A stretch of 64,000 bases of DNA, taken from NCBI GenBank assembly GCA_035363115.1, contig DAOSEM010000001.1, positions 271,356 to 335,355 of the forward strand, in the 5' to 3' direction. A model generated the notes under the pieces. The model was given only the letters and a program-made list of their open reading frames with translations, ran no database searches and was not told the origin of the DNA. Made by a program: the position numbers and the translations under genes. The DNA comes from Syntrophales bacterium. GTDB lineage: Bacteria > Desulfobacterota > Syntrophia > Syntrophales > PHBD01. Of the stretch, positions 5,789 through 54,956 are shown piece by piece. Every line of letters starts with the position of its first letter. Within the stretch, counting starts at the first letter, position 1.

Positions 5789-7426
5789 TGGATATTTCTC
5801 CTTGTCCTTCCTTTGTTTTTCCCTGGGTCGCGAATCCCGGCACGTCCGGATTTCTCCGGGAGGCGGGCCTCCGGTCCCGACGGCCGCCGATCCCTTCCGG
5901 ACAGGGGAGTCTTCCCCGGACGCCGCCATGCGGCGCAGCTCCCGGCGCAGGATTTTACCCATGGGATTGCGCGGCAGGCACTCGACGATGGTTACTCGGA
6001 GGGGCCGCTTGTGCGGGGAGAGGTGGTCCCGGCAGTGCCGGAGGAGGCTTTCCTCCGTGGCGGACTCGCCTTCCCGGAGCTCCACGTAGACGACGGCCTC
6101 TTCCCCGACGACCGGATCGGGCATGCCCACGGCCACGGCATCCCGGACGGCCGGATGACCGTGGAGGACCTCCTCGATGTCGCGGGGATAGATGTTGAAG
6201 CCCCCGCGGATGATCAGGTCCTTCTTCCGCTCCACGATGTACAGGTAGCCGTCCCCGTCCATCCGGGCCATGTCTCCCGTGTACAGCCAGCCGTCCCGGA
6301 AGGCCCGGGCGGTCTCTTCGGGGAGATTCAGGTAGCCCGCCGCAACGTTGGGGCCCCGAACGAGCAGCTCTCCCACCTCTCCAGCGGGGACGTCTTGATC
6401 CCGGTCGTCGACGATCCGCACCTTCACGGAGGGAATCGGCTGGCCGACGGAGTCCGGCTTGACGGGCCGGCCCTGGTAATTGGTGCTGACCGCCGGCGAC
6501 GCCTCCGAGAGCCCGTAGGCGGGATAGACGGTGCAGCGGAACGTTTCCTCGAAGCGCCGGAGCGCCGGAAGGGGAAAAGGCGCCGAGCCGGCGAGGCATT
6601 TCTTCAGCGAGGAGAGGTCGTATTTTCCCGCAACCGGACTTCCCAGCATCATCATGAACATGGCCGGAACACCCGGGAAATCGGTCACCCGGTGCCTCTC
6701 GATCAGGGCGAAGGCCTCCTCCGCCTGGAAGCGCCGCATCAGGACGTGAAGATTCCCGTATTGATAGGCCTTGTTCATGGTGGTGATGCCGAAGGAATGG
6801 GAGAGAGGCAGGGCCACCAGCGTGACGTCCGAGGCCTTCGTCCCGTGGGCCCGGGCGGCGTTGACCGCGTTGGAGTAGAGATTGGCGTGGGTCAGGATCA
6901 CGCCCTTGGGATTCCAGGTCGTTCCGGCCGTGTAGAGAATAACGGCGAGGTCCGTCTCCCTGAGGTCCGTCTTGCCGACGTTTTCCGGGACCGCCGCAGT
7001 GAGGGACCGGAAGGAGATCGTTCCGGGTGGAGGGGTGTCTCCCGTGACGAGGAGGTGTTTCAGGGATGTGGCGGATGCGAGGACCGCCCGGTGTGCCTGC
7101 AGAATCTCCGGGCCCGTGACGAGGGCCCTGGCTTCGCAGTCGTTCAGGATATGCCCGAGCTCCACGGCTCCGACCGACGGGATGATCGGGACGATGGCGG
7201 CGCCGCATCGCAGGATTCCCTGGTAGCCGACGATGACCTCGGGGCTGTTGGGGAGAAGCACCGCCACCCGGTCGCCCCTGCCGATGCCGAGCGTCTTCAG
7301 GCCGGAGGCCAGGCGGTTGGCATCCCGGAGGATTTCCGTGTTGGTGAAGGGTTTCCCTTCGAAGATCACAAACGGGTATTCACCAAAGCGGTCGAGGTTG
7401 TCGTCGGCCAGCGTGACGAGGTTCAT
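5207..7426 (-). CDS. AMP-forming acyl-CoA synthetase/ligase continuing in frame into an iron-sulfur flavoprotein (Isf-like, NADPH-dependent FMN reductase fold) domain
   Basis: A single 739-aa ORF. The N-terminal ~500 aa carry AMP-binding motifs (LYTAGTTWNPKGV, YGLSE, TGDMARMDGDGYLYIVERKKDLI, GKILRRELR). After a ~55-aa low-complexity linker the C-terminal 193 aa read KKVLVLLGSPRKKGNT...CQGCMACQKKNAKRC (flavodoxin-like fold, CX2CX2CX7C). Confidence 0.85.
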   Translation of the reverse strand: MNLVTLADDNLDRFGEYPFVIFEGKPFTNTEILRDANRLASGLKTLGIGRGDRVAVLLPNSPEVIVGYQGILRCGAAIVPIIPSVGAVELGHILNDCEARALVTGPEILQAHRAVLASATSLKHLLVTGDTPPPGTISFRSLTAAVPENVGKTDLRETDLAVILYTAGTTWNPKGVILTHANLYSNAVNAARAHGTKASDVTLVALPLSHSFGITTMNKAYQYGNLHVLMRRFQAEEAFALIERHRVTDFPGVPAMFMMMLGSPVAGKYDLSSLKKCLAGSAPFPLPALRRFEETFRCTVYPAYGLSEASPAVSTNYQGRPVKPDSVGQPIPSVKVRIVDDRDQDVPAGEVGELLVRGPNVAAGYLNLPEETARAFRDGWLYTGDMARMDGDGYLYIVERKKDLIIRGGFNIYPRDIEEVLHGHPAVRDAVAVGMPDPVVGEEAVVYVELREGESATEESLLRHCRDHLSPHKRPLRVTIVECLPRNPMGKILRRELRRMAASGEDSPVRKGSAAVGTGGPPPGEIRTCRDSRPREKQRKDKEKYPMRTNETGKKVLVLLGSPRKKGNTAILAAEIARGAASKGAEVETVYLHGQKISPCQGCMACQKKNAKRCAIDDDMQAIYPKLLAADAWVIASPVYWFTMTAQTKLWMDRCFALPAYGKDPFRGKRIAVAMAYGGEDPFDSGAVNALRAFQDAYAYVEANLVGMVYGSAMEAGKIRADEKVMKEARALGMKLAAP

Positions 7427-16813: not shown

Positions 16814-18258
16814 ACGGGCGGCTCATAGCCTACCTGCTTTCCATCCTCGTCCTCGACCTGGGCCTCTTTATGGTCCTGCCCGTCCTGGTCTCCCTCTGGT
16901 ACGGGGAGCCGTGCGCCCGGCAGCTGTTTCTCGCTGCGATCCTCACCGGATGCCTGGGCCTGGCCATGCGGGCCGCCTCGGGCCGGCCCGCCGACCGGTA
17001 CCTGAGCCACCGGGACGGAGTCGCCATTGTGACGGGAGGGTGGGTGCTGGCCGGCCTGGTGGCGACCCTGCCCTATCTCCTGACGGGGACCATCCCGGAT
17101 TTCACGGACGCCTACTTCGAGTGCATCTCCGGTTTCACCACCACGGGCTCCAGCATTTTCAGCAACGTCGAAGTTCTGCCGAGGGGCGTCCTCTTCTGGC
17201 GGAGCCTCACCCAGTGGCTCGGGGGCATGGGGATCATCGTCCTGTCCATCGCGATCCTTCCCTTCCTGGGGATCGGGGGGATGCAGCTCTACAAGGCGGA
17301 GACGCCCAGCCCCGTCGTGGACAAGCTGACGCCGCGGATCTCCGACACGGCCAGGGTCCTGTGGAAAGTATACGTCCTGCTGACGCTGATGCAGATTATC
17401 CTGCTCCTCTTCGGCGGCATGTCCCTCTTCGACGCCGTCTGCCACGCCTTCACGACGATGCCCACGGGCGGCTTTTCCACGAAGAATGCAAGCATCGCCG
17501 CCTATAACAGCGTCTATATCGAGGTCGTGGTGACCGTGTTCATGGTCCTGGCGGGGATGAACTTCGCCCTGCATTACCGGCTGCTCCGGGGAGATTTCCG
17601 TTCTGTCCGGAAAGATCCGGAGATCCGGGTCTATCTCCTCATTTTCGGAGTCCTGACGCTCCTGGTGGCGGTGGACCTTTTCGGCCGGACCTGCCCGTCG
17701 GCGACGCAGGCCCTCCGTTACGCCTCCTTCCAGGTGGCCTCGATCCTGACGACAACCGGCTATACCACGGCGGACTTCGAGCAGTGGCCCGCCTTTTCCC
17801 AGATCGTGCTGCTCCTGTGCATGTTCCTCGGCAGTATGGCCGGATCCACCGGCGGCGGCATCAAGACGCTCCGCCTGCTCCTGCTTGCCAAGCACGCCTA
17901 CCTCGAGATCGTCCGCGTAATCCATCCCCACGCCATGACCATCGTGAAACTCGGGAATGTCCCCGTCTCCCAGTCCGTCCTCCGCAGCGTCTGGGGATTT
18001 TTTATCCTCTTCATGGGCATCTTCGTCCTGGCGACGCTTGTCATGAGCGCCCTGGGAGTCGATTTTCTGACCTCCGTCTCTTCCGTGGCCTCCTGCCTGG
18101 GAAACGTGGGGCCCGGGTTGGGCGCCGTCGGGCCGATGGATAATTTCGGCGGCCTGCCGGCGGCGGGAAAGTGGGTGCTCATCGCCTGCATGCTCCTGGG
18201 GAGGCTGGAGATTTATACGGTATTGGTATTCCTGATGCCCCGCTTCTGGAAGGACTGA
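16810..18258 (+). CDS. trkH: Trk potassium uptake system membrane subunit TrkH
   Basis: ATGA overlap with trkA. Multi-TM protein with TrkH pore-loop motifs (ECISGFTTTGSSIF, TTMPTGGFST, LTTTGYTT, GSTGGGIKT). Confidence 0.92.
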   Translation: MNGRLIAYLLSILVLDLGLFMVLPVLVSLWYGEPCARQLFLAAILTGCLGLAMRAASGRPADRYLSHRDGVAIVTGGWVLAGLVATLPYLLTGTIPDFTDAYFECISGFTTTGSSIFSNVEVLPRGVLFWRSLTQWLGGMGIIVLSIAILPFLGIGGMQLYKAETPSPVVDKLTPRISDTARVLWKVYVLLTLMQIILLLFGGMSLFDAVCHAFTTMPTGGFSTKNASIAAYNSVYIEVVVTVFMVLAGMNFALHYRLLRGDFRSVRKDPEIRVYLLIFGVLTLLVAVDLFGRTCPSATQALRYASFQVASILTTTGYTTADFEQWPAFSQIVLLLCMFLGSMAGSTGGGIKTLRLLLLAKHAYLEIVRVIHPHAMTIVKLGNVPVSQSVLRSVWGFFILFMGIFVLATLVMSALGVDFLTSVSSVASCLGNVGPGLGAVGPMDNFGGLPAAGKWVLIACMLLGRLEIYTVLVFLMPRFWKD

Positions 18259-18411
18259 CGGGCTGCTGAAAAACAGCCGTCTGCGGCGTTTCCCTCCTCC
18301 TTCGCCATTCGACGTACCGAAAAGGGTACGACTCATGGCTCAGGATTTCGGGGGCCTTGCATCCGGGTATTTTTGAACAGCCCGCTACAGGCTTCCGGCA
18401 GGGATGTTCCA

Positions 18412-18447
18412 ATTGCTCCTCTGGGAACCCCCGGTCGCGCCCCCGCG
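18412..18447. repeat. Left arm of the perfect 36-bp inverted repeat bracketing the core module
   Basis: ATTGCTCCTCTGGGAACCCCCGGTCGCGCCCCCGCG is the exact reverse complement of 18740-18775. Confidence 0.95.
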
Positions 18448-18739
18448 GACGTCGGCTGGTAAATGGGTAAATAGGGACACTTCCCCTATATTTTCTCGTA
18501 ATGGTCGGTCCGGGGAGGGGGGCTTCCCGGAGCGCGAATAGCGGCTTTTTCGGGGCACCCTGCCGTCGCAGCGCAGCGCCCGCAAAGTCCTGTGTTTGAA
18601 CACCGTCCGGTGCGAGTTATGACTTTGCAGCGGAGCGAAAAGATGCAAAGGGAGCAGATTTGAAATCTGTCCCATACGCTTCTGAACGCAAGGGATGCCC
18701 CCTCCCTGTTCAAACGGAAGCTTTTTCCCGTCGTAATTT

Positions 18740-18775
18740 CGCGGGGGCGCGACCGGGGGTTCCCAGAGGAGCAAT
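18740..18775. repeat. Right arm of the perfect 36-bp inverted repeat (also the 5' arm of the U hairpin)
   Basis: CGCGGGGGCGCGACCGGGGGTTCCCAGAGGAGCAAT, lying 292 bp from the left arm. It also pairs imperfectly with 18846-18870. Confidence 0.95.
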
Positions 18776-18920
18776 CAGGAAGCGTTTCCAGGGCAGGGAG
18801 ATCCGATTTGCCGGCACCGGAAACAGGAAACGCTTCCGCGACGGCGGGAATCCCCGTGGCAGCCCCCGCGCCCCGGATGAATCTGCCGGCCGTGGGGGCT
18901 GATACAGGAGAGTCGTTGTT

Positions 18921-31155: not shown

Positions 31156-32883
<1,728 letters not shown>

Positions 32884-32891
32884 GCGTATAT

Positions 32892-33932
32892 TCAGAGGAT
32901 CAGCATCGCATCCCCATAACTGTAAAACCGGAATCCGTCCTCCACGGCCCGGCGGTAGGCCGCCTTCATCCGTTCCGTCCCGGCGAAGGCGCAGACCAGG
33001 ATGAAGAGGGACGACCGGGGGAGGTGGAAGTTCGTCACCATGGCCCCGGTGCAGCGGAACCGGTGCCCCGGGCGGATGAACAGGTCCGTGTATCCCTCCC
33101 CGGCGGCCACCCGTCCGTTCTCGTCGGCCAGCGTCTCCAGTACCCGGGTGGAGGTCGTCCCGACGGCCACCACGCGCCGGGCATCGTTGATCAGGCGGGC
33201 CGTTTCCGAAGTCAGTTCGTAATGTTCCGCGTCCAGGCCGGCGTTTTCCAGCGGACCTTCCGGCAGCGGCTGGAAGGTCCCGTATCCCACGTGCAGGGTC
33301 AGTCGCGCCACGGGAATATTCTTTTTCTCCAGCTCCGCAAAGACCGCCGGGGTGAAGTGAAGGCCTGCCGTGGGGGCCGCCACGGAGCCGGGGGGACGGG
33401 CGTATACGGTCTGGTAGCGCTCCCGGTCATGCGCCGTTCCGGGATCGCCGGGATCCCGGCGGATGTAGGGCGGCAGGGGTGGCCGTCCGATCCTGTCCAG
33501 ATAGGCGTTGAAAGGCTCCCCGGCGTGAAACCGGACCCGCCACTTCTTGTCGGAAATGCGCTCGACGATCTCCGCGGCGGCCCCCTCCGGGAGGAGAATT
33601 CGGTCGCCCGGGCGCAGACGTCGCGCCGGCCGGAGGAGGGCCTCCCAGGTTCGTCCCTCCGGATCCGCTCCCGCCGGAAGCGGGAGAAGCAGGATCTCCA
33701 CGGCCCCCCCGGTTTCCCGCCGCCCGTTCAGCCGTGCCGGGATGACCCGCGAGTCGTTGACGACCAGGACGTCTCCTGGCTTAAGAAATTCCGGAAGGTC
33801 GGCGAAGACGCGCTCCTCCAGCCCGTCCCGATCCCGCCGGACCACCAGCAGGCGCGACCGGTCGCGCTCCGCCGCCGGCTCCTGGGCGATTCGCTCGGGG
33901 GGCAGGAAATAGTCGAAGACCGACGGATCCAT
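32892..33932 (-). CDS. queA: S-adenosylmethionine:tRNA ribosyltransferase-isomerase
   Basis: ORF 32892..34184 trimmed to MDPSVFDYFLPPERIAQEPAAERDRSRLLVV. Also VVNDSRVIPARL, HVGYGTFQP and NFHLPRSSL. Confidence 0.93.
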   Translation of the reverse strand: MDPSVFDYFLPPERIAQEPAAERDRSRLLVVRRDRDGLEERVFADLPEFLKPGDVLVVNDSRVIPARLNGRRETGGAVEILLLPLPAGADPEGRTWEALLRPARRLRPGDRILLPEGAAAEIVERISDKKWRVRFHAGEPFNAYLDRIGRPPLPPYIRRDPGDPGTAHDRERYQTVYARPPGSVAAPTAGLHFTPAVFAELEKKNIPVARLTLHVGYGTFQPLPEGPLENAGLDAEHYELTSETARLINDARRVVAVGTTSTRVLETLADENGRVAAGEGYTDLFIRPGHRFRCTGAMVTNFHLPRSSLFILVCAFAGTERMKAAYRRAVEDGFRFYSYGDAMLIL

Positions 33933-49389: not shown

Positions 49390-50460
49390 ATGTTGAAACC
49401 CAGAGGTAATCGTATCGAACGCGTCCGTTTCATTGCCTGCCTTCTCGTGATTCCTGTGTTTCTTGCGGCCGGCTGCAGCGGTGGCAAAAGCGCGAGCGAG
49501 CAGGTGAGCGCCCCCGTCCCCGTGGCCGTGAAAACAATCGAGAAAACGGACGTCGAAAAGGTCATCTCCGTCACTGGGAACATCGAAGGGCTGAGAACCG
49601 CGCGCCTGGGCTTCCTGGTGGCCGGGAAGGTCAACTACATCGCCGCGAGGGAAGGGGAGACGGTCCGGGCGGGGCAGCTCCTGGCCAGCCTCGACCCGGA
49701 GAGCTACCGGATCGGCAAGGAGTTGGCCGACGCCGCCGTCGCCCAAATCGAGGACGAGCACCGGCGACTGACCCTGATGCACGAGCGGAAGAGCCTCTCG
49801 GACGGCGACTACGCGAAGATCAACAGCGGTCTGCGGCAGGCCCGGGCGCAGCAGCGGCTGCAGGCGAAAAACCTGGCGGACACGAGGCTGTACACGCCTT
49901 TCAGCGGGATTCTCCTGAAGCGCGGGGTCGAAGTCGGGGAGATCATCGGCACGGGCATGCCCGTCTTCGCGGTCTCCGACATCCACGTCGTGAAGGTCAA
50001 CGCCTCTGTTCCCGAGACGGACCTGCAGTTCATCCGGATGGGCTCCGAGGCCCGGGTGCGCATTTCCTCCCTCGATTCCGAGTATGCCGGGAAGGTCGTG
50101 GAGATCGGCTCCCTCGCGGAAGCGACGACCCGGGCGTTTCCCGTGAAGATCGAAGTCGGGAACCCCGATCTGCTCATGCGTCCGGGCATGACGGCGGACA
50201 TCCGGATCCAGTCCGGAAAGAAGACGGAGATCATGGCCGTGCCCGGGGAAGCGGTCATGCGAGACCCGGACAATGCGGCCTATGTCTTCGTCGTTGATGA
50301 AAACCGGAAACAGGCCTTCAAGCGCAGGATTTCCCTCGGGGAGATCCGTGAAAACGGCATCGCCGTGACCTCCGGCCTCGCTCCGGGCGAGCAGGTCGTG
50401 GTCGGCGGCCAGCATAAGCTGAATGACGGAACTCCCGTGACAGTCAAGCAGGCACCATGA
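49390..50460 (+). CDS. RND efflux periplasmic adaptor (MFP) lipoprotein
   Basis: Lipobox LAAGC. Also LYTPFSGILLKRGVEVGE and MRPGMTADIRI. ATGA-type overlap with the downstream RND start. Confidence 0.88.
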   Translation: MLKPRGNRIERVRFIACLLVIPVFLAAGCSGGKSASEQVSAPVPVAVKTIEKTDVEKVISVTGNIEGLRTARLGFLVAGKVNYIAAREGETVRAGQLLASLDPESYRIGKELADAAVAQIEDEHRRLTLMHERKSLSDGDYAKINSGLRQARAQQRLQAKNLADTRLYTPFSGILLKRGVEVGEIIGTGMPVFAVSDIHVVKVNASVPETDLQFIRMGSEARVRISSLDSEYAGKVVEIGSLAEATTRAFPVKIEVGNPDLLMRPGMTADIRIQSGKKTEIMAVPGEAVMRDPDNAAYVFVVDENRKQAFKRRISLGEIRENGIAVTSGLAPGEQVVVGGQHKLNDGTPVTVKQAP

Positions 50461-53400
50461 ACTTCGTCAAGAAATCCCTGAAGTATCCCCAGGTCACCGT
50501 CTCCGTCCTCCTCATCCTGTTTGCCGTCGGCACCTTCTCCCTCCTGGAGATGCCGCGGCGCGAGGACGCCAAGATCCGTATCCGGGTGGGGCAGGTCATT
50601 GCCTTCTACCCCGGGGCCGATTCGCTCCAGGTAGAGGAGCAGGTCACGAAGAAGCTGGAGCAGTACCTGTTCCAGTATGAAGAGGTCCGGAAAGAGAAAA
50701 CGACCTCCACCACCCGCGACGGCGTCGTCCTCATCAACGTCTGGCTGAACGACAGCGTGAAAGACCTGGACGTCTTCTGGAGCAAGCTGAACCACCAGTT
50801 GCTCGTCCAGAAGGCCGTCAGCCTGCCGCCGGGTGTCCAGGGACCCATCGTGAATTTCGAGTTCGGCGACGTGGAGGCGCTCCTGATCGCCATTGAAATG
50901 GACGATCCCGACTATGCCCGGATGAGCGACTGTGCCCGGAAGCTGGAAGACAGCCTCCGGACCCTCAAGTCCGTCTCGAAGATCAGGCGCATCGGCGGCC
51001 AGAAGGAGCAGATCCTCATCTCGGCGGACAGCGCGAAGCTGGAGCGATACGGGATGACCTTCGCGACGGCCATGATGGTCCTGCAGTCGCAGAACACCAT
51101 CGGCCCCGCAGGCGACCTTTCGACGCCGGACTCGCAGGTGCGCCTTTACACCAGGGGATATTACCGGACGGAGACGGAGATCGGCGACCAGATCATCGGC
51201 CTGGCCAGGACCGGCGAGACGGTGCGCCTGAGGGACGTGGCGGCGATCCAGAGGCAGTACCAGGAGCCGGCCTCCCGGGCCACGGTCAACGGCAGGAACA
51301 CCATGCTCCTGGCCGTGCAGATGCATGAAGGCCGCAACATCGTCGAGTTCGGGAAAGAGGTGGACCGGAAGCTCGCCGAAACATCGAGGCTCCTCCCGGC
51401 GGGCGTCAAGCTGACCACGATCGTCAACCAGCCCGCCGTGGTCGCGAAAAACGTCGGCCATTTCCTTCGCGAGTTCATGCTGGCCATCGTCGCGGTCATC
51501 CTGGTCATCGTGCTGCTCCTCCCGTTCCGCGTGGCCGCCGTGGCTGCCATGGCCATCCCCATGACCGTCGCCGTGACATTCGGCGTCATGCACGCCCTGG
51601 GCATCGAGCTGCACCAGGTTTCCCTGGCCGCCCTGATCGTGGCGCTGGGCATGGTCGTGGACGACGCCGTCGTCGTTGCCGACAACTACGTGGAGCTGCT
51701 GGACGGGGGAGTGGACCGGAAGACCGCCGCCTGGCGCAGCGCCTCCGACCTCGTGGTGCCCATCCTGGCGGCGACGGTGACCATCATTGCAGCCTTCCTG
51801 CCGATGACGCTTCTGACGGGCATGGTCGGCGAGTTCATCATCGCCCTGCCCCTGACCGTCTCCATCGCCCTGGCGGCTTCCTTTTTCGTCGCCATGGTCC
51901 TGACGCCGCTCCTCTGCCTGACGTTCATCCGGAAGGGCCTTCACGACCGGGAAGAAACCGGGAAGACGAGCGGGAAAAAAGACCGGTCCCTTCTCGACTT
52001 CATGCAGCTTGGATACGACCGGGCCATCGCCTGGTGCATGGCCCACTCCCGGGTGTCGATCTCCGCCTGCCTCGTCATCATCCTGCTGGCGGTGGCCCTG
52101 TACCAGGCCATCCCCCAGAAATTCTTTCCGGCGGCGGAGCGAAACCAGTTTATCGTGGAGCTGTGGATGCCCACGGGCACGAAGCTGGAGAAGACCGGGC
52201 AGGCCGTCCGGAAGATCGAGGGCATGCTGAAAAACGACAGGCGGGTTGTGAACTATGCCGGCTTCATCGGCATGGGGGCGCCGCGCTTTTATTACAATTT
52301 CATTCCCGAGCCGCCGGGCGCCAATTTTGCGCAGGTGATCGTGAACACGAACACGGACGAGGAGGCGAAGCAACTCCAGCGTGAGTTGAACGCCCGGGTG
52401 GACGGAGAGGTCCCCGAAGGGAGGGTCCAGGCCAGGCTCATGCAGCAGGGAGTCCCCGCCGCCGCATCCGTCGAGGTCCGGATCGTCGGCGACGACATCG
52501 CGACCCTGAAAAGCGCCGGCCGCCAGGTGGAGGACATTCTCCGGGAGACCCGCGCCGCCGCCTTCATCCGCTCCGACTTCCGGGAGGACTATTACGGCGT
52601 CTCCGTCCGGCTCCTGGACAATGCCGCCCGCATGGGATTCACCACGGAAAGCGTTGCCAAGTCCATTTACGCCGGCTTCACCGGTGCGCCCGTGTCGACC
52701 CTCTACGAAGGCAACACGCCCGTGGAGATCCTGCTGCGCCTGGACGAGCGGAGCCGGGGCAGCTTCGACCACCTCAGGAACATGTACCTGCCGTCTCCCG
52801 TAACCGGTGCGGCGGTGCCGCTTCGCCAGATCGCGACGCTGGAGCCGCAGTGGCATCACGGCCGGATCCGGCACCTCAATGGTCTCCGGACGCTGACGGT
52901 TCAATGCGAGCCGGCGGAGGGCATCCTGGCCTCGCAGGTCCTGAAAAAGGCGCGGCCGCAGATATCCAGAATCGCGCTCCCACCGGGATTCCGGATCGAA
53001 TATGGCGGGGAATACGAAAACCAGAGGGAGACCTTTTCGGAGATGCTGGTGGTGCTGGCCATCAGCATTGTGCTCATCTTTCTCGTTCTCCTGTTCCAGT
53101 TCCGCAACCTGAAGCAGTCCTTCATCGTCATGCTGACGATTCCCCTGAGCATGTTCGGGGCGTTTCTGGGACTGCTGATCACGGGCAATCCCTTCGGATT
53201 CACCGCCTTTGTCGGCCTGATCAGCCTGTCGGGCATCGTGGTCCGGAACGCCATCATCCTCATCGACCATGCCAACGAGCTCTGCCGCGGCGGCGCTTCC
53301 ATCCGGACGGCCGCCCTGGAATCAGGAAAAAGAAGGCTGCGGCCCATCTTCCTGACGGCCAGCGCGGCGGCGATCGGCGTCCTTCCCATGATCCTTTCCG

Positions 53401-54956
53401 GGTCGCCCCTGTGGAGCCCTCTGGCCAGCGTGATCGCCGTGGGCATCATGCTCTCCATGGTTGTCTCGCTCCTCCTGGTGCCGGTTCTCTACGCCGCCAT
53501 GATCAAGCCTTCCGGCGTCCTGGCGAAGTCCCCGGCAAGCCTTGAAAGGCCCGCCCATACAGGCCTGCGAAAACAAGTCGCTTCCCTGCTCCTGATCGCC
53601 CTGATTCTATTCCCGGCCGGTGCCGGCGCCCAGGACGGCCCGGAGCGGCTGAACCTGCAGAAGGTTACGGAACTGGCCGTCCGGAACAACCGGCTGCTCC
53701 ATATCAGGCAGCTCCAGGTGGACGAAAAGCGGCAGAAAGTGAGCGAAAGCAGGGTCAAGTATTTCCCCGCCGTCGTGGTCGGCGGCTCGTATCAGTACAG
53801 CAGCGTGGCCGGCACGGTCGATCTCAGCCAGGGATTTCTCGGCACGGTTTCCACGGGCTCGGTCCATCTGCCGGTCCCCTCGGTGGACCTGGCCCTGGAT
53901 CTGAACAGTTACGATGTTGCCAGCGCAGGAGTCCGCTTCTATCAGCCCGTCTCGCAGATCCCGAAGATCCGGTCTGGCGTTGAAATTTCCAAGGCGGACC
54001 TCGCGATTTCGGAAATCGAACAGGCCAAGGCGATCATGCAGGTGAAGCAGGCCGCGGAGAAGCTCTATTTCGGCCTGCTGATCCTCCAGAAGCAGAAGGA
54101 AGAGGCACAGATCAAGCGGACCCTGGCGAAACGGAAGCTTCACGACGTCGAGAGCGCCGTCCTGGCCGGCAAGACGACGCCGTCCAGCCTGGCGGGATTG
54201 AAGGCGGCCGTGGCCGACGAGGAGCAGAACCTTCTGAAGATCCGGATCCAGATCGACGACTATTCCGCCGATCTGAGGCACCTGATCGGCCTGCCGTCCT
54301 CCACTCCGTTCGTCCTTGATCCGGTAACCTTCGATGACACCATATACGAACTCATGCCGGTGGATGCCCTGGCCCGGGAGGCGCAGACCGGCAACAGCGA
54401 TCTGAAAGCGGCGGCCGTTCAGAAAGCCAAGGCCGAGCACGCGATAGACGCCAGCCGGTTCAGCTACCTGCCGGACTTCGGCGTGATGGGCGGCTATACC
54501 TGGCAGGAGGGCAATGCGCACTTCCGGCAGAGCGCGATCCATTCCGGGTTCGATCCGGGGTGGAACGTCCGGGACGCCTTCATCGGCGTCTCTCTCCAGT
54601 GGAACATCCAGGACGCCGTCTCCAACGTGTACGTGAAGAGGCAGCGCCTCGCCCTGAAAAGGCAGGCCGAAGAGAACCTGGCCAACACGCTGGAGCAGGT
54701 GAATGCGGACATCGAAAAGGCGCACCGGAGGGCCTCCCAGGCGGTCGAGCTGATTTCCGTCGCCCGGAAGGTCGTCGACTACCGCCGGGAGGATTACCGG
54801 ATCCAGAAGGACCGGTACGAGGCCGGGCTGAGTCTCGAAGCGGACTGTCTCACGGCGAAGGCGGCCCTCATGAAGGCCGAGTCGGACCTCTTTGCCGCGC
54901 AGCTGAATTACCGGATCGTCGTGACGGACCTGCAACTTCTGTCGGGGAGGCTCTAG
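50457..54956 (+). CDS. RND efflux permease continuing in frame into a TolC-like outer-membrane factor domain (1499-aa ORF)
   Basis: The first ~1020 aa form a 12-TM AcrB-family protein (MNFVKKSLKYPQVTVSVLLILFAVG ... LLLVPVLYAAMIKP). Then comes the basic/hydrophobic segment LRKQVASLLLIALILFPAGAGA-QD. The last ~440 aa carry two OEP repeats (LNLQKVTELAVRNNRLLH..., ALAREAQTGNSDLKAAAVQ...). There is no stop between the parts. Confidence 0.8.
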   Translation: MNFVKKSLKYPQVTVSVLLILFAVGTFSLLEMPRREDAKIRIRVGQVIAFYPGADSLQVEEQVTKKLEQYLFQYEEVRKEKTTSTTRDGVVLINVWLNDSVKDLDVFWSKLNHQLLVQKAVSLPPGVQGPIVNFEFGDVEALLIAIEMDDPDYARMSDCARKLEDSLRTLKSVSKIRRIGGQKEQILISADSAKLERYGMTFATAMMVLQSQNTIGPAGDLSTPDSQVRLYTRGYYRTETEIGDQIIGLARTGETVRLRDVAAIQRQYQEPASRATVNGRNTMLLAVQMHEGRNIVEFGKEVDRKLAETSRLLPAGVKLTTIVNQPAVVAKNVGHFLREFMLAIVAVILVIVLLLPFRVAAVAAMAIPMTVAVTFGVMHALGIELHQVSLAALIVALGMVVDDAVVVADNYVELLDGGVDRKTAAWRSASDLVVPILAATVTIIAAFLPMTLLTGMVGEFIIALPLTVSIALAASFFVAMVLTPLLCLTFIRKGLHDREETGKTSGKKDRSLLDFMQLGYDRAIAWCMAHSRVSISACLVIILLAVALYQAIPQKFFPAAERNQFIVELWMPTGTKLEKTGQAVRKIEGMLKNDRRVVNYAGFIGMGAPRFYYNFIPEPPGANFAQVIVNTNTDEEAKQLQRELNARVDGEVPEGRVQARLMQQGVPAAASVEVRIVGDDIATLKSAGRQVEDILRETRAAAFIRSDFREDYYGVSVRLLDNAARMGFTTESVAKSIYAGFTGAPVSTLYEGNTPVEILLRLDERSRGSFDHLRNMYLPSPVTGAAVPLRQIATLEPQWHHGRIRHLNGLRTLTVQCEPAEGILASQVLKKARPQISRIALPPGFRIEYGGEYENQRETFSEMLVVLAISIVLIFLVLLFQFRNLKQSFIVMLTIPLSMFGAFLGLLITGNPFGFTAFVGLISLSGIVVRNAIILIDHANELCRGGASIRTAALESGKRRLRPIFLTASAAAIGVLPMILSGSPLWSPLASVIAVGIMLSMVVSLLLVPVLYAAMIKPSGVLAKSPASLERPAHTGLRKQVASLLLIALILFPAGAGAQDGPERLNLQKVTELAVRNNRLLHIRQLQVDEKRQKVSESRVKYFPAVVVGGSYQYSSVAGTVDLSQGFLGTVSTGSVHLPVPSVDLALDLNSYDVASAGVRFYQPVSQIPKIRSGVEISKADLAISEIEQAKAIMQVKQAAEKLYFGLLILQKQKEEAQIKRTLAKRKLHDVESAVLAGKTTPSSLAGLKAAVADEEQNLLKIRIQIDDYSADLRHLIGLPSSTPFVLDPVTFDDTIYELMPVDALAREAQTGNSDLKAAAVQKAKAEHAIDASRFSYLPDFGVMGGYTWQEGNAHFRQSAIHSGFDPGWNVRDAFIGVSLQWNIQDAVSNVYVKRQRLALKRQAEENLANTLEQVNADIEKAHRRASQAVELISVARKVVDYRREDYRIQKDRYEAGLSLEADCLTAKAALMKAESDLFAAQLNYRIVVTDLQLLSGRL

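Follow-up and report, generated by a model that had tools for sequence, protein, structure and literature searches.

The window analyzed here, a stretch of 64,000 nucleotides from a Syntrophales bacterium (contig DAOSEM010000001.1, positions 271,356 to 335,355), carries two composite intergenic loci built from three kinds of repeated module, designated A, core and U, each of which is a long imperfect hairpin. Locus 1 is situated between convergent genes, namely trkH, whose open reading frame (ORF) ends at 18258 (Pfam TrkH; protein record HOI72746.1, Syntrophales bacterium), and a DUF1722 / 2-thiouracil-desulfurase-type gene. Locus 2 lies within a co-directional queA-tgt cluster, in which the minus-strand ORF ending at 32892 encodes QueA and is followed by Tgt, YajC, SecD and SecF. 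The modules constitute at least three families (U, core and A), to which a terminator-like hairpin, termed T, is added. With a probability of roughly 80%, both loci are clusters of independently repeated hairpin elements, which belong to a mosaic repeat system resembling bacterial interspersed mosaic elements (BIMEs) and REPINs (hairpin-forming doublets of repetitive extragenic palindromic, REP, sequences) and specific to a lineage of uncultured Syntrophales/Syntrophaceae.

When each locus was compared with the entire window by gapped blastn, three inter-locus matches and zero further copies were returned. One same-strand match joins 18407-18647 to 32450-32695 (79.5% over 249 nt, E 5e-58), while the matches of U (18740-18872 to 32490-32358; 80.9%, E 3e-28) and of A (18261-18382 to 32883-32765; 79.5%, E 8e-24) are reversed. 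Short module motifs occur 5, 2 and 2 times in the window, versus 0.00-0.03 expected from shuffles. At locus 1 the core is enclosed by a 36-bp inverted repeat (IR; 18412-18447 and 18740-18775), the two copies of which are complementary at 36 of 36 positions and are separated by 292 nt. Moreover, both composites form chains of long hairpins, with whole-locus minimum free energy (MFE) z-scores of -9.2 and -4.7.

These data bear out much of what an original prediction, made from the sequence alone, had described: three shared modules at these places, a core on the same strand at both loci with A and U reversed, the IR around the core of locus 1, the hairpin character of the modules and the two stop codons at 18258 and 32892. 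It had further placed module A 2-8 nt past the stop codon of the gene transcribed into it; the adjacency stands, and the distance as measured is 0-2 nt past trkH and 6-8 nt past queA, depending on the boundary chosen for A. Likewise, its statement that the window holds no transposase, recombinase or reverse transcriptase agrees with Pfam scans of the called genes. Its author had recognized no known RNA family, and the Rfam search that followed gave zero matches at the gathering threshold across the whole window and, for the two loci at E values up to 10, only chance-level matches with E of at least 0.07; a known Rfam family was ruled out on these grounds. No tRNA or tmRNA was found by a scan of the window, and the composite had no blastn match in plasmid or phage collections. 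The features of both loci are as follows.

18259-18388, plus strand: module A copy 1, a ~125-nt imperfect hairpin (GGGCTGCTGAAAAA...TTTTTGAACAGCCC) directly after the trkH stop
18407-18449, minus strand: half U (arm 1 only), holding the left copy of the 36-bp IR (18412-18447); the arm type that precedes nearly all cores
18450-18510, plus strand: arm-core spacer of locus 1, 60 nt, with a small terminator-like hairpin at 18471-18489
18511-18715, plus strand: core copy 1, a long hairpin, variant with a T-like hairpin (18651-18673) inside its 3' arm
18738-18874, plus strand: full U, a ~133-nt imperfect palindrome of arm 1 (18740-18785, including the right IR copy 18740-18775), loop and arm 2 (18826-18872)
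32358-32492, minus strand: full U copy 2, with its arm 1 end toward the core
32493-32558, plus strand: spacer of locus 2, ~60-66 nt, ending in a duplicated arm tip, CCCCGCGGACATTGGTC
32559-32737, plus strand: core copy 2, canonical type, antisense to queA-tgt transcription
32765-32885, minus strand: module A copy 2, second subtype, with its 5' end 6-8 nt past the queA stop (boundary-dependent)

Modules U, A and core repeat independently

Related stretches, numbered with the prefix L, were retrieved from Syntrophaceae/Syntrophales genomes and metagenomes; they amount to ~130 loci, and ~1.1 Mb of related sequence was inspected. Module U was searched for with a 25-nt pattern degenerate enough to cover both types of arm (GGGAAYCCCCGNNNNNGCCCCCGCG), which matched all five arms in the window. 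In a collection of species-representative genomes this pattern yielded 91 stretches, nearly all from five Syntrophaceae metagenome-assembled genomes (MAGs), and its matches often formed a minus/plus pair ~106 nt apart and often lay at contig ends. In addition, an invariant 20-mer of the core led to 42 further loci from long metagenome contigs. Gene context was assigned by a crude in-house gene caller trained on the GC content of third codon positions (GC3), such that all counts relating modules to genes are approximate and include orthologous copies, which are not independent.

Across these ~130 loci U, A and core are found separately, in tandem, nested within one another and in several combinations. 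Tabulation of module copies and orientation combinations in the relatives thus favors one of the candidates put forward in the original prediction, a mosaic repeat family of the BIME kind. The composition also differs between genomes: the MAG PPR_0392 holds 23 full U copies, zero core and zero A in the blocks fetched, and 174 kb of fetched blocks from binchicken_co20_342 hold 17 full U, 18 core and 5 full A.

Module U, a ~133-nt imperfect palindrome, consists of two conserved arms of ~46 nt and a variable loop. One half is an imperfect inverted copy of the other, and the left copy of the 36-bp IR at locus 1 represents a further copy of one half. Hence, the perfection of this IR is not specific to the locus and reflects a family-wide conserved U arm: the exact 36-mer is present in 43 of 127 arm-1 copies, and 85 of 127 match it with at most one mismatch. 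A comparison of 80 unique U copies shows conservation in the arms and variability in the loops, with compensatory types at 7 pairs. U is mostly solitary, with tandem copies in L059, L077 and L031, and it lies inside a called gene in only 5 of 90 full copies. In solitary copies the element runs a few bases past the arms, with CCGAYRTT bordering on CGCGGGGGC, and it is terminated by the inverted repeats CGCGGGGGC...GCCCCCGCG. Direct repeats indicative of target-site duplication were absent around the 31 solitary copies inspected. At the orthologous queA-tgt loci, the window (32405-32440) and L115 (~1225-1290) share near-identical U arms and carry wholly different loop types, which suggests in-place replacement or gene conversion of the repeat. 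With tens of copies per genome, U is the oldest and most widespread family.

Full U copies with 73-84% identity to the window U were also noted on two contigs that bear other taxonomic labels, L025 (LUYO01000055.1, Rhodobacterales) and L072 (JBFZER010000206.1, Spirochaetota). The flanks of L025 are orthologous to the Syntrophaceae contigs L062, L069 and L087, and both contigs are probably mis-binned Syntrophaceae.

Module A, a ~125-nt hairpin with 14-nt terminal inverted repeats (GGCTGTTGAAAAAC...GCATTTTTGAACAGCC), is encountered in two settings. In the first, it is nested between U arms in place of the loop (L008, L018, L047, L100 and L123). In the second, it follows a stop codon: at ~7 independent loci its 5' end lies 0-9 nt past the stop of a gene on the same strand, the junction often reading TGA followed directly by CGGGCTG, while its 3' end never comes closer than 51 nt to a gene. 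Module A is therefore polar relative to its upstream gene, as had been proposed from the two window loci. None of 26 copies lies inside a called gene, and no direct repeats surround the A copies. Copies of the A module of locus 1 in related genomes are 94-98% identical. Where the window has a single A after trkH, L109 (1162-1510, equivalent to L064:6843-7189) has three in tandem. Each of these is preceded by TTTGAC(A/G), so that the TGA which acts as stop codon at several loci may be part of A itself.

The core is a ~175-nt hairpin (GGGAG..GCTTCCC ... GGGAAGC..CTCCC), with about 11-18 copies counted in each related assembly and 2 in the 64 kb of the window. Its most distinctive property is a fixed coupling to U: in 60 of 61 evaluable copies the 5' end of the core follows U arm 1 in one and the same orientation. 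The distance between the two is at most 15 nt in 52 of the 61 and 16-140 nt in a further 8, with a single copy having no arm. The usual 11-nt linker between arm and core is the terminal extension of U itself (CCGAYRTT), which is present beside solitary U copies as well. On the other hand, the orientation of the core is unrelated to neighboring transcription. Cores lie at gene 3' ends without strand bias, between convergent genes in 24 cases, between co-directional genes in 20 (12 sense, 8 antisense) and between divergent genes in 1, and none of 65 falls within a called gene. Two cores in tandem are found in each of L129 and L131.

Most cores are succeeded by a semi-conserved tail of ~45 nt and then by hairpin T (GGAGCGGATTTGAAATCCGCTCC). 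T is rich in GC and flanked by A/T-rich sequence, its loop region (CGGATTTGAAATCCG) is conserved, its outer stems covary, and it scores as an intrinsic terminator on both strands. T was recorded in 44 fetched loci, usually ~45 nt past the core (e.g., L039:498-528), and is nested in the 3' arm of the core at 18651-18673 of the window and in L104, which shares this core variant. The two spacers have relatives of their own. A spacer related to that of locus 1 recurs in L082 and L121, while most family members have only ~11 nt at this place. The spacer of locus 2, in which the comparison with the orthologous L115 delimits a 59-nt duplication-type stretch between arm and core, is missing from L115, and a leader variant of it occurs in L109, L116, L119 and L134. 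An extra small module, AATAGGGACACTTCCCC(T/A)TTTTTT..GGGAACAAC.CGCCTTGCCTGTTC, was seen in the spacer of locus 1 (18471-18489), and the same type of module breaks into or replaces the 3' part of the core in L121 (~1700-1600), L078 (~6040-6140) and L137.

Core orientation within the mosaic

The original prediction held that the core is inverted between the two loci within a fixed A..U frame. This does not stand, as the constant unit is the minus-strand U arm 1 leading into the plus-strand core, which is present at both window loci. What differs is the surroundings of this unit. In locus 1 the core has A and a half U on its 5' side, and an additional full U follows on the 3' side. In locus 2 the arm is part of a complete U, with A placed 3' of the core, on the opposite strand and flush with queA. 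Both arrangements recur among the relatives: in 18 cases A lies 5' of the core on the same strand and in 4 cases 3' of it on the opposite strand, none of a different kind was seen among the mapped loci, and in every case the 5' end of A points outward to the neighboring gene. Since A and the second U recur as separate neighbors in both arrangements, the A..U frame is not a unit, and the apparent flip of the core arises because these independent neighbors are placed differently around a constant unit. The arm of locus 1 is a half U remaining from a composite of U with nested A that has been deprived of its outer arm; its junction with A (CAGCC joined to CGCTACAGGCTTCCGGCAGGGATGTTCCAATTGCTCC) is that of all nested A copies.

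In line with this, core orientation is preserved at orthologous loci. Two further assemblies of the same organism, ENA ERZ27257396 and JGI 3300009707 (L001/L002), match the window with 100% identity over locus 1 and have the same orientation. At the trkH ortholog L109/L064, the trkH end of which is 91% identical to that of the window, the order is trkH, A A A', U(-), core(+), a U fragment and the DUF1722 gene, with the core oriented as in the window. L115 corresponds to locus 2 in both order and orientation, its queA end being 98% identical. Taken as consensus assemblies, the window, L001, L002, L109, L064 and L115 all agree.

Invertons are invertible promoter switches, as exemplified by fimS, hin/hix and the invertible promoters of Bacteroides, and locus 1 is reminiscent of them in possessing a ~300-bp segment between perfect inverted repeats of ~30 bp. 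An active switch, also listed in the original prediction, would imply that recombination flips the 292-bp segment between the 36-bp IRs of locus 1 and that locus 2 represents the other state in frozen form. Apart from the perfect IR around the core, this could draw on the recurrence of arm 1, core and inverted arm 1 at ~6 independent loci, with 214-349 nt between the arms. Furthermore, L047:3717-4747 (HGW-Deltaproteobacteria-19) and L126:1138-2346 (Ga0228535), which share flanks of 86-92% identity, differ by the inversion of a 293-nt segment, which comprises arm 1, the core and part of A and lies between inverted arm-2 tips. No other inversion turned up among the 71 orthologously flanked gaps compared. 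Inversion between inverted U arms is thus a real evolutionary process in the repeat system and has occurred at least once. For locus 1 itself, an active switch is nonetheless very improbable. Its IR is the generic U arm repeated genome-wide and identical in a third of the arm copies, locus 2 has only one arm beside the core, the three assemblies covering the locus (window, ERZ27257396 and 3300009707) show no mixed orientations, and orthologs in other genomes have retained the orientation. None of the called genes of the window, adjacent or distant, is a recombinase, and the stretch between 18100 and 19000 yielded no sigma-70-like promoter. The junction predicted for an inverted 18448-18739 had 0 matches in JGI metagenome contigs, a weak negative, as the core scan also missed the window's own sample and there was no positive control. 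In addition, the flanking genes converge on the element, leaving nothing obvious to switch. The inverton was accordingly rejected on account of the missing mixed orientations, recombinase and promoter.

A more trivial explanation, whereby the similarity between the loci would be an assembly artifact or a chance resemblance of GC-rich intergenic DNA, can be given practically no credence. Metagenome and MAG assemblies do often break or collapse at repeats, and the Logan contigs L003 and L004, which are independent assemblies, both end at window position 18312, the apex of module A. This explanation is refuted, however, by E values of 8e-24 to 5e-58 within a 64-kb window, by three independent assemblies of identical sequence and by more than 100 further copies inside long contigs of up to 784 kb from unrelated studies.

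The core as a candidate structured RNA

Several properties of the system weigh against regarding both loci simply as a BIME/REPIN-like mosaic. The core is ~90-95% conserved across copies and genomes, compared with 72-86% for U or A, and its internal loops are nearly invariant. In its basal stem, G·U pairs outnumber A·C pairs asymmetrically between the strands (64 versus 9, next to 2490 Watson-Crick pairs), a pattern more in keeping with a functional RNA than with mere junk DNA; A and U display no such asymmetry. Furthermore, the case for mobility of the modules is wholly distributional, with no target-site duplication seen, and a mobilizing enzyme was not found in the ~1.1 Mb of related sequence inspected. 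Finally, the orientation data derive from consensus assemblies, with which a low-frequency inversion at locus 1 would be compatible.

One alternative, which is possible though rather doubtful, is that the core together with its 5' U arm and its 3' T constitutes a mobile small RNA (sRNA) gene. Such a gene would dock on the REPIN-like U in the manner of a MITE (miniature inverted-repeat transposable element) and be mobilized in trans, its plus-strand transcript being the product. For the core, this comes close to the MITE with a structured RNA that the original prediction had named as a third candidate. Arguments in its favor are that 60 of 61 copies dock to the U terminus and that conservation across several genomes extends to the internal loops; three core pairs with compensatory changes and a variable basal stem that pairs on the plus strand only, via G·U, can be added. 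The terminator-like hairpin with covarying stems ~45 nt downstream of most copies fits as well, and an orientation independent of the flanking genes is what would be expected for a self-contained gene. There is also a published precedent for an sRNA-bearing MITE at a fixed REP site (PMC12288879). On the contrary, no promoter was recognized upstream, T is equally terminator-like on the opposite strand, and neither an IS110-type, a RAYT (REP-associated tyrosine transposase) nor any other transposase was seen beside the copies or in the paralog clusters inspected. The G·U asymmetry comes mainly from the one variable basal stem, in copies that are not independent, and gene conversion in palindromic DNA can mimic compensatory change. 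A case in point is the apical stem of the core, which differs between the window and L115 by a compensatory double change, while the flanking genes are 96-98% identical.

If this reading applied, the core might tentatively be regarded as an undescribed multi-copy structured RNA gene of ~175 nt (perhaps ~260 nt with tail and terminator) that spreads by docking on a REPIN-like terminus. Selection or concerted evolution would then maintain its ~90% identity between species, and in place of inert selfish DNA it would be a mobile sRNA, or else an RNA that guides a repeat-targeting enzyme or serves as its scaffold. A comparison of the U arm with the core loops for complementarity, following the idea of a bridge-type RNA, gave only a 7-8-nt match in the apical stem and is uninformative. 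That the core encodes a small protein is less probable still than an active switch at locus 1. On the minus strand of the consensus, one frame stays open over 105 codons. It does not, however, begin with a start codon, open frames are frequent at a GC content of 64%, copies differ in length by 1 nt, and the variable columns are distributed 9/7/3 over the codon phases, without clear three-base periodicity. Coding potential of the core was rejected for want of such periodicity.

Known repeat systems, spread and assembly

With regard to organization, the closest known counterparts of the mosaic are BIMEs, which in enterobacteria and pseudomonads are built from REP or palindromic units (PUs) (PMC2817692; PMC3184786). 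As in BIMEs, intergenic clusters are composed of few palindromic modules in varied order and orientation with conserved linkers, and the repeats are extragenic, follow gene 3' ends, reach tens of copies or more per genome and have no coding capacity. However, the Syntrophales modules are hairpins of 125-175 nt and thus not the short REP/PU units of 20-40 nt, the core is far more conserved than the other modules and docked to one specific arm, and the sequences are unrelated, such that the likeness is organizational only. For U, the closest counterparts are REPINs, i.e., hairpin-forming REP doublets mobilized by RAYT transposases (PMC3116915; PMC3337134). U likewise comprises two conserved inverted arms with a variable spacer that form one long hairpin of ~130 nt. 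Its arms are over-represented (91 pattern stretches, 127 arm-1 copies in the sample), and its copies are solitary or clustered and kept at orthologous sites in related species. In contrast to REPINs, the U arms measure ~46 nt without an obvious short stem-loop or conserved 5' tetranucleotide of the REP type, U serves as docking platform for two further modules, and a RAYT gene was not found in the sampled DNA, which is a weak negative.

For the core, REP-docked sRNA MITEs may be closest. MITEPpu9/ssr9 of Pseudomonas putida is an sRNA-bearing, MITE-like module at a fixed REP position that is mobilized by the IS110-family element ISPpu9 (PMC12288879). The core resembles it as a non-coding, structured module whose solo copies keep one position and one orientation with respect to a REP-type repeat, with occasional tandem duplication (L129, L131). 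On the other hand, neither an IS110-type transposase nor A/B end boxes were identified around the core in the sampled DNA, the core abuts the outer terminus of U instead of splitting it, its copy number is higher and its expression is putative.

Long palindromic MITE-like repeats are also represented by the Correia elements of Neisseria, the ERIC/IRU sequences of enterobacteria and the BOX elements of pneumococcus. Common traits are imperfect intergenic palindromes of 100-200 nt, co-transcription with neighboring genes, modularity (boxA/B/C) and the ability to act as terminators or RNase III substrates. The Syntrophales repeats differ from them in lacking a TA or other target-site duplication and any sequence similarity, and in residing in an anaerobic syntroph lineage. 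Of the hallmarks of classical MITEs, terminal inverted repeats are found in A and U and target-site duplications are not; the classical MITE was ruled out for this missing duplication.

Enzymes that might mobilize the modules were sought in several ways. No gene flanked by repeats on both sides occurs in any fetched locus, and no transposase or recombinase was seen among the same-strand genes downstream of cores, the N-terminal sequences of which were inspected by eye without a Pfam scan. Clustering of 696 predicted proteins from related loci into paralogs yielded no transposase in the ten largest clusters, which Pfam assigned to fatty-acid oxidation and similar housekeeping families. A tblastn search of ~1.1 Mb with an E. 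coli RayT query gave no credible match, again a weak negative. A targeted literature search on palindromic repeats in Syntrophaceae turned up nothing relevant.

A plausible course of events under the mosaic reading is that the modules spread as non-autonomous selfish DNA mobilized in trans by some enzyme, and that the mosaic would be rearranged through tandem duplications, nesting, deletions spanning the bases of hairpins, gene conversion and, now and then, recombination between inverted arms. Where they are transcribed as part of 3' untranslated regions (UTRs) or operon spacers, the hairpins could act in the way of REP or Correia sequences, as terminators, RNase (III) targets or barriers to 3' decay, and the host may tolerate or exploit them as UTR hairpins. 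Placed immediately after stop codons, A might in addition interfere with translation termination. Liang, Rudd and Deutscher reportedly observed in 2015 that hairpins within ~15 nt of a stop codon disturb termination in E. coli.

Deletion may have left traces at two loci where relatives carry a core or a U. There, collapsed-hairpin footprints were found, GGGAGAGGGAAGCCCC in L065 (~800-875) and CGCGAACATTCGGGAGAG in L062 (~2800-2830), which look like the hairpin base remaining after deletion of the palindrome. No direct repeats were seen at such presence/absence events. Two Logan contigs terminate within module A, as noted above, and U or core forms the end of many binchicken_co20_342 contigs. 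The U, A and core repeats hence fragment short-read assemblies of this Syntrophales lineage, and since they break such MAG assemblies, models of the repeats would help binning and scaffolding. This is of practical relevance, as the Syntrophales, syntrophs of the Deltaproteobacteria type, are important in anaerobic digesters.

In a broader sense, the two loci illustrate that an eye-catching flipped module can come simply from the combination of independent palindromic repeats, a finding that removes the candidate of an invertible switch. The repeat system of these uncultured Syntrophales, for which Rfam and the plasmid and phage collections gave no match and the targeted literature search no description, is marked by two features in particular: the strict docking of a conserved 175-nt hairpin on one REPIN-like arm and the placement of hairpin A flush against stop codons.

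Separately from the repeats, the window contains at 50457-54956 on the plus strand a single ORF of 1499 codons, which joins a complete AcrB-type resistance-nodulation-division (RND) transporter domain (residues 6-1014) to an OEP outer-membrane-factor domain (1304-1497), and which represents either an unusual fusion or two genes merged by a sequencing or frame error.

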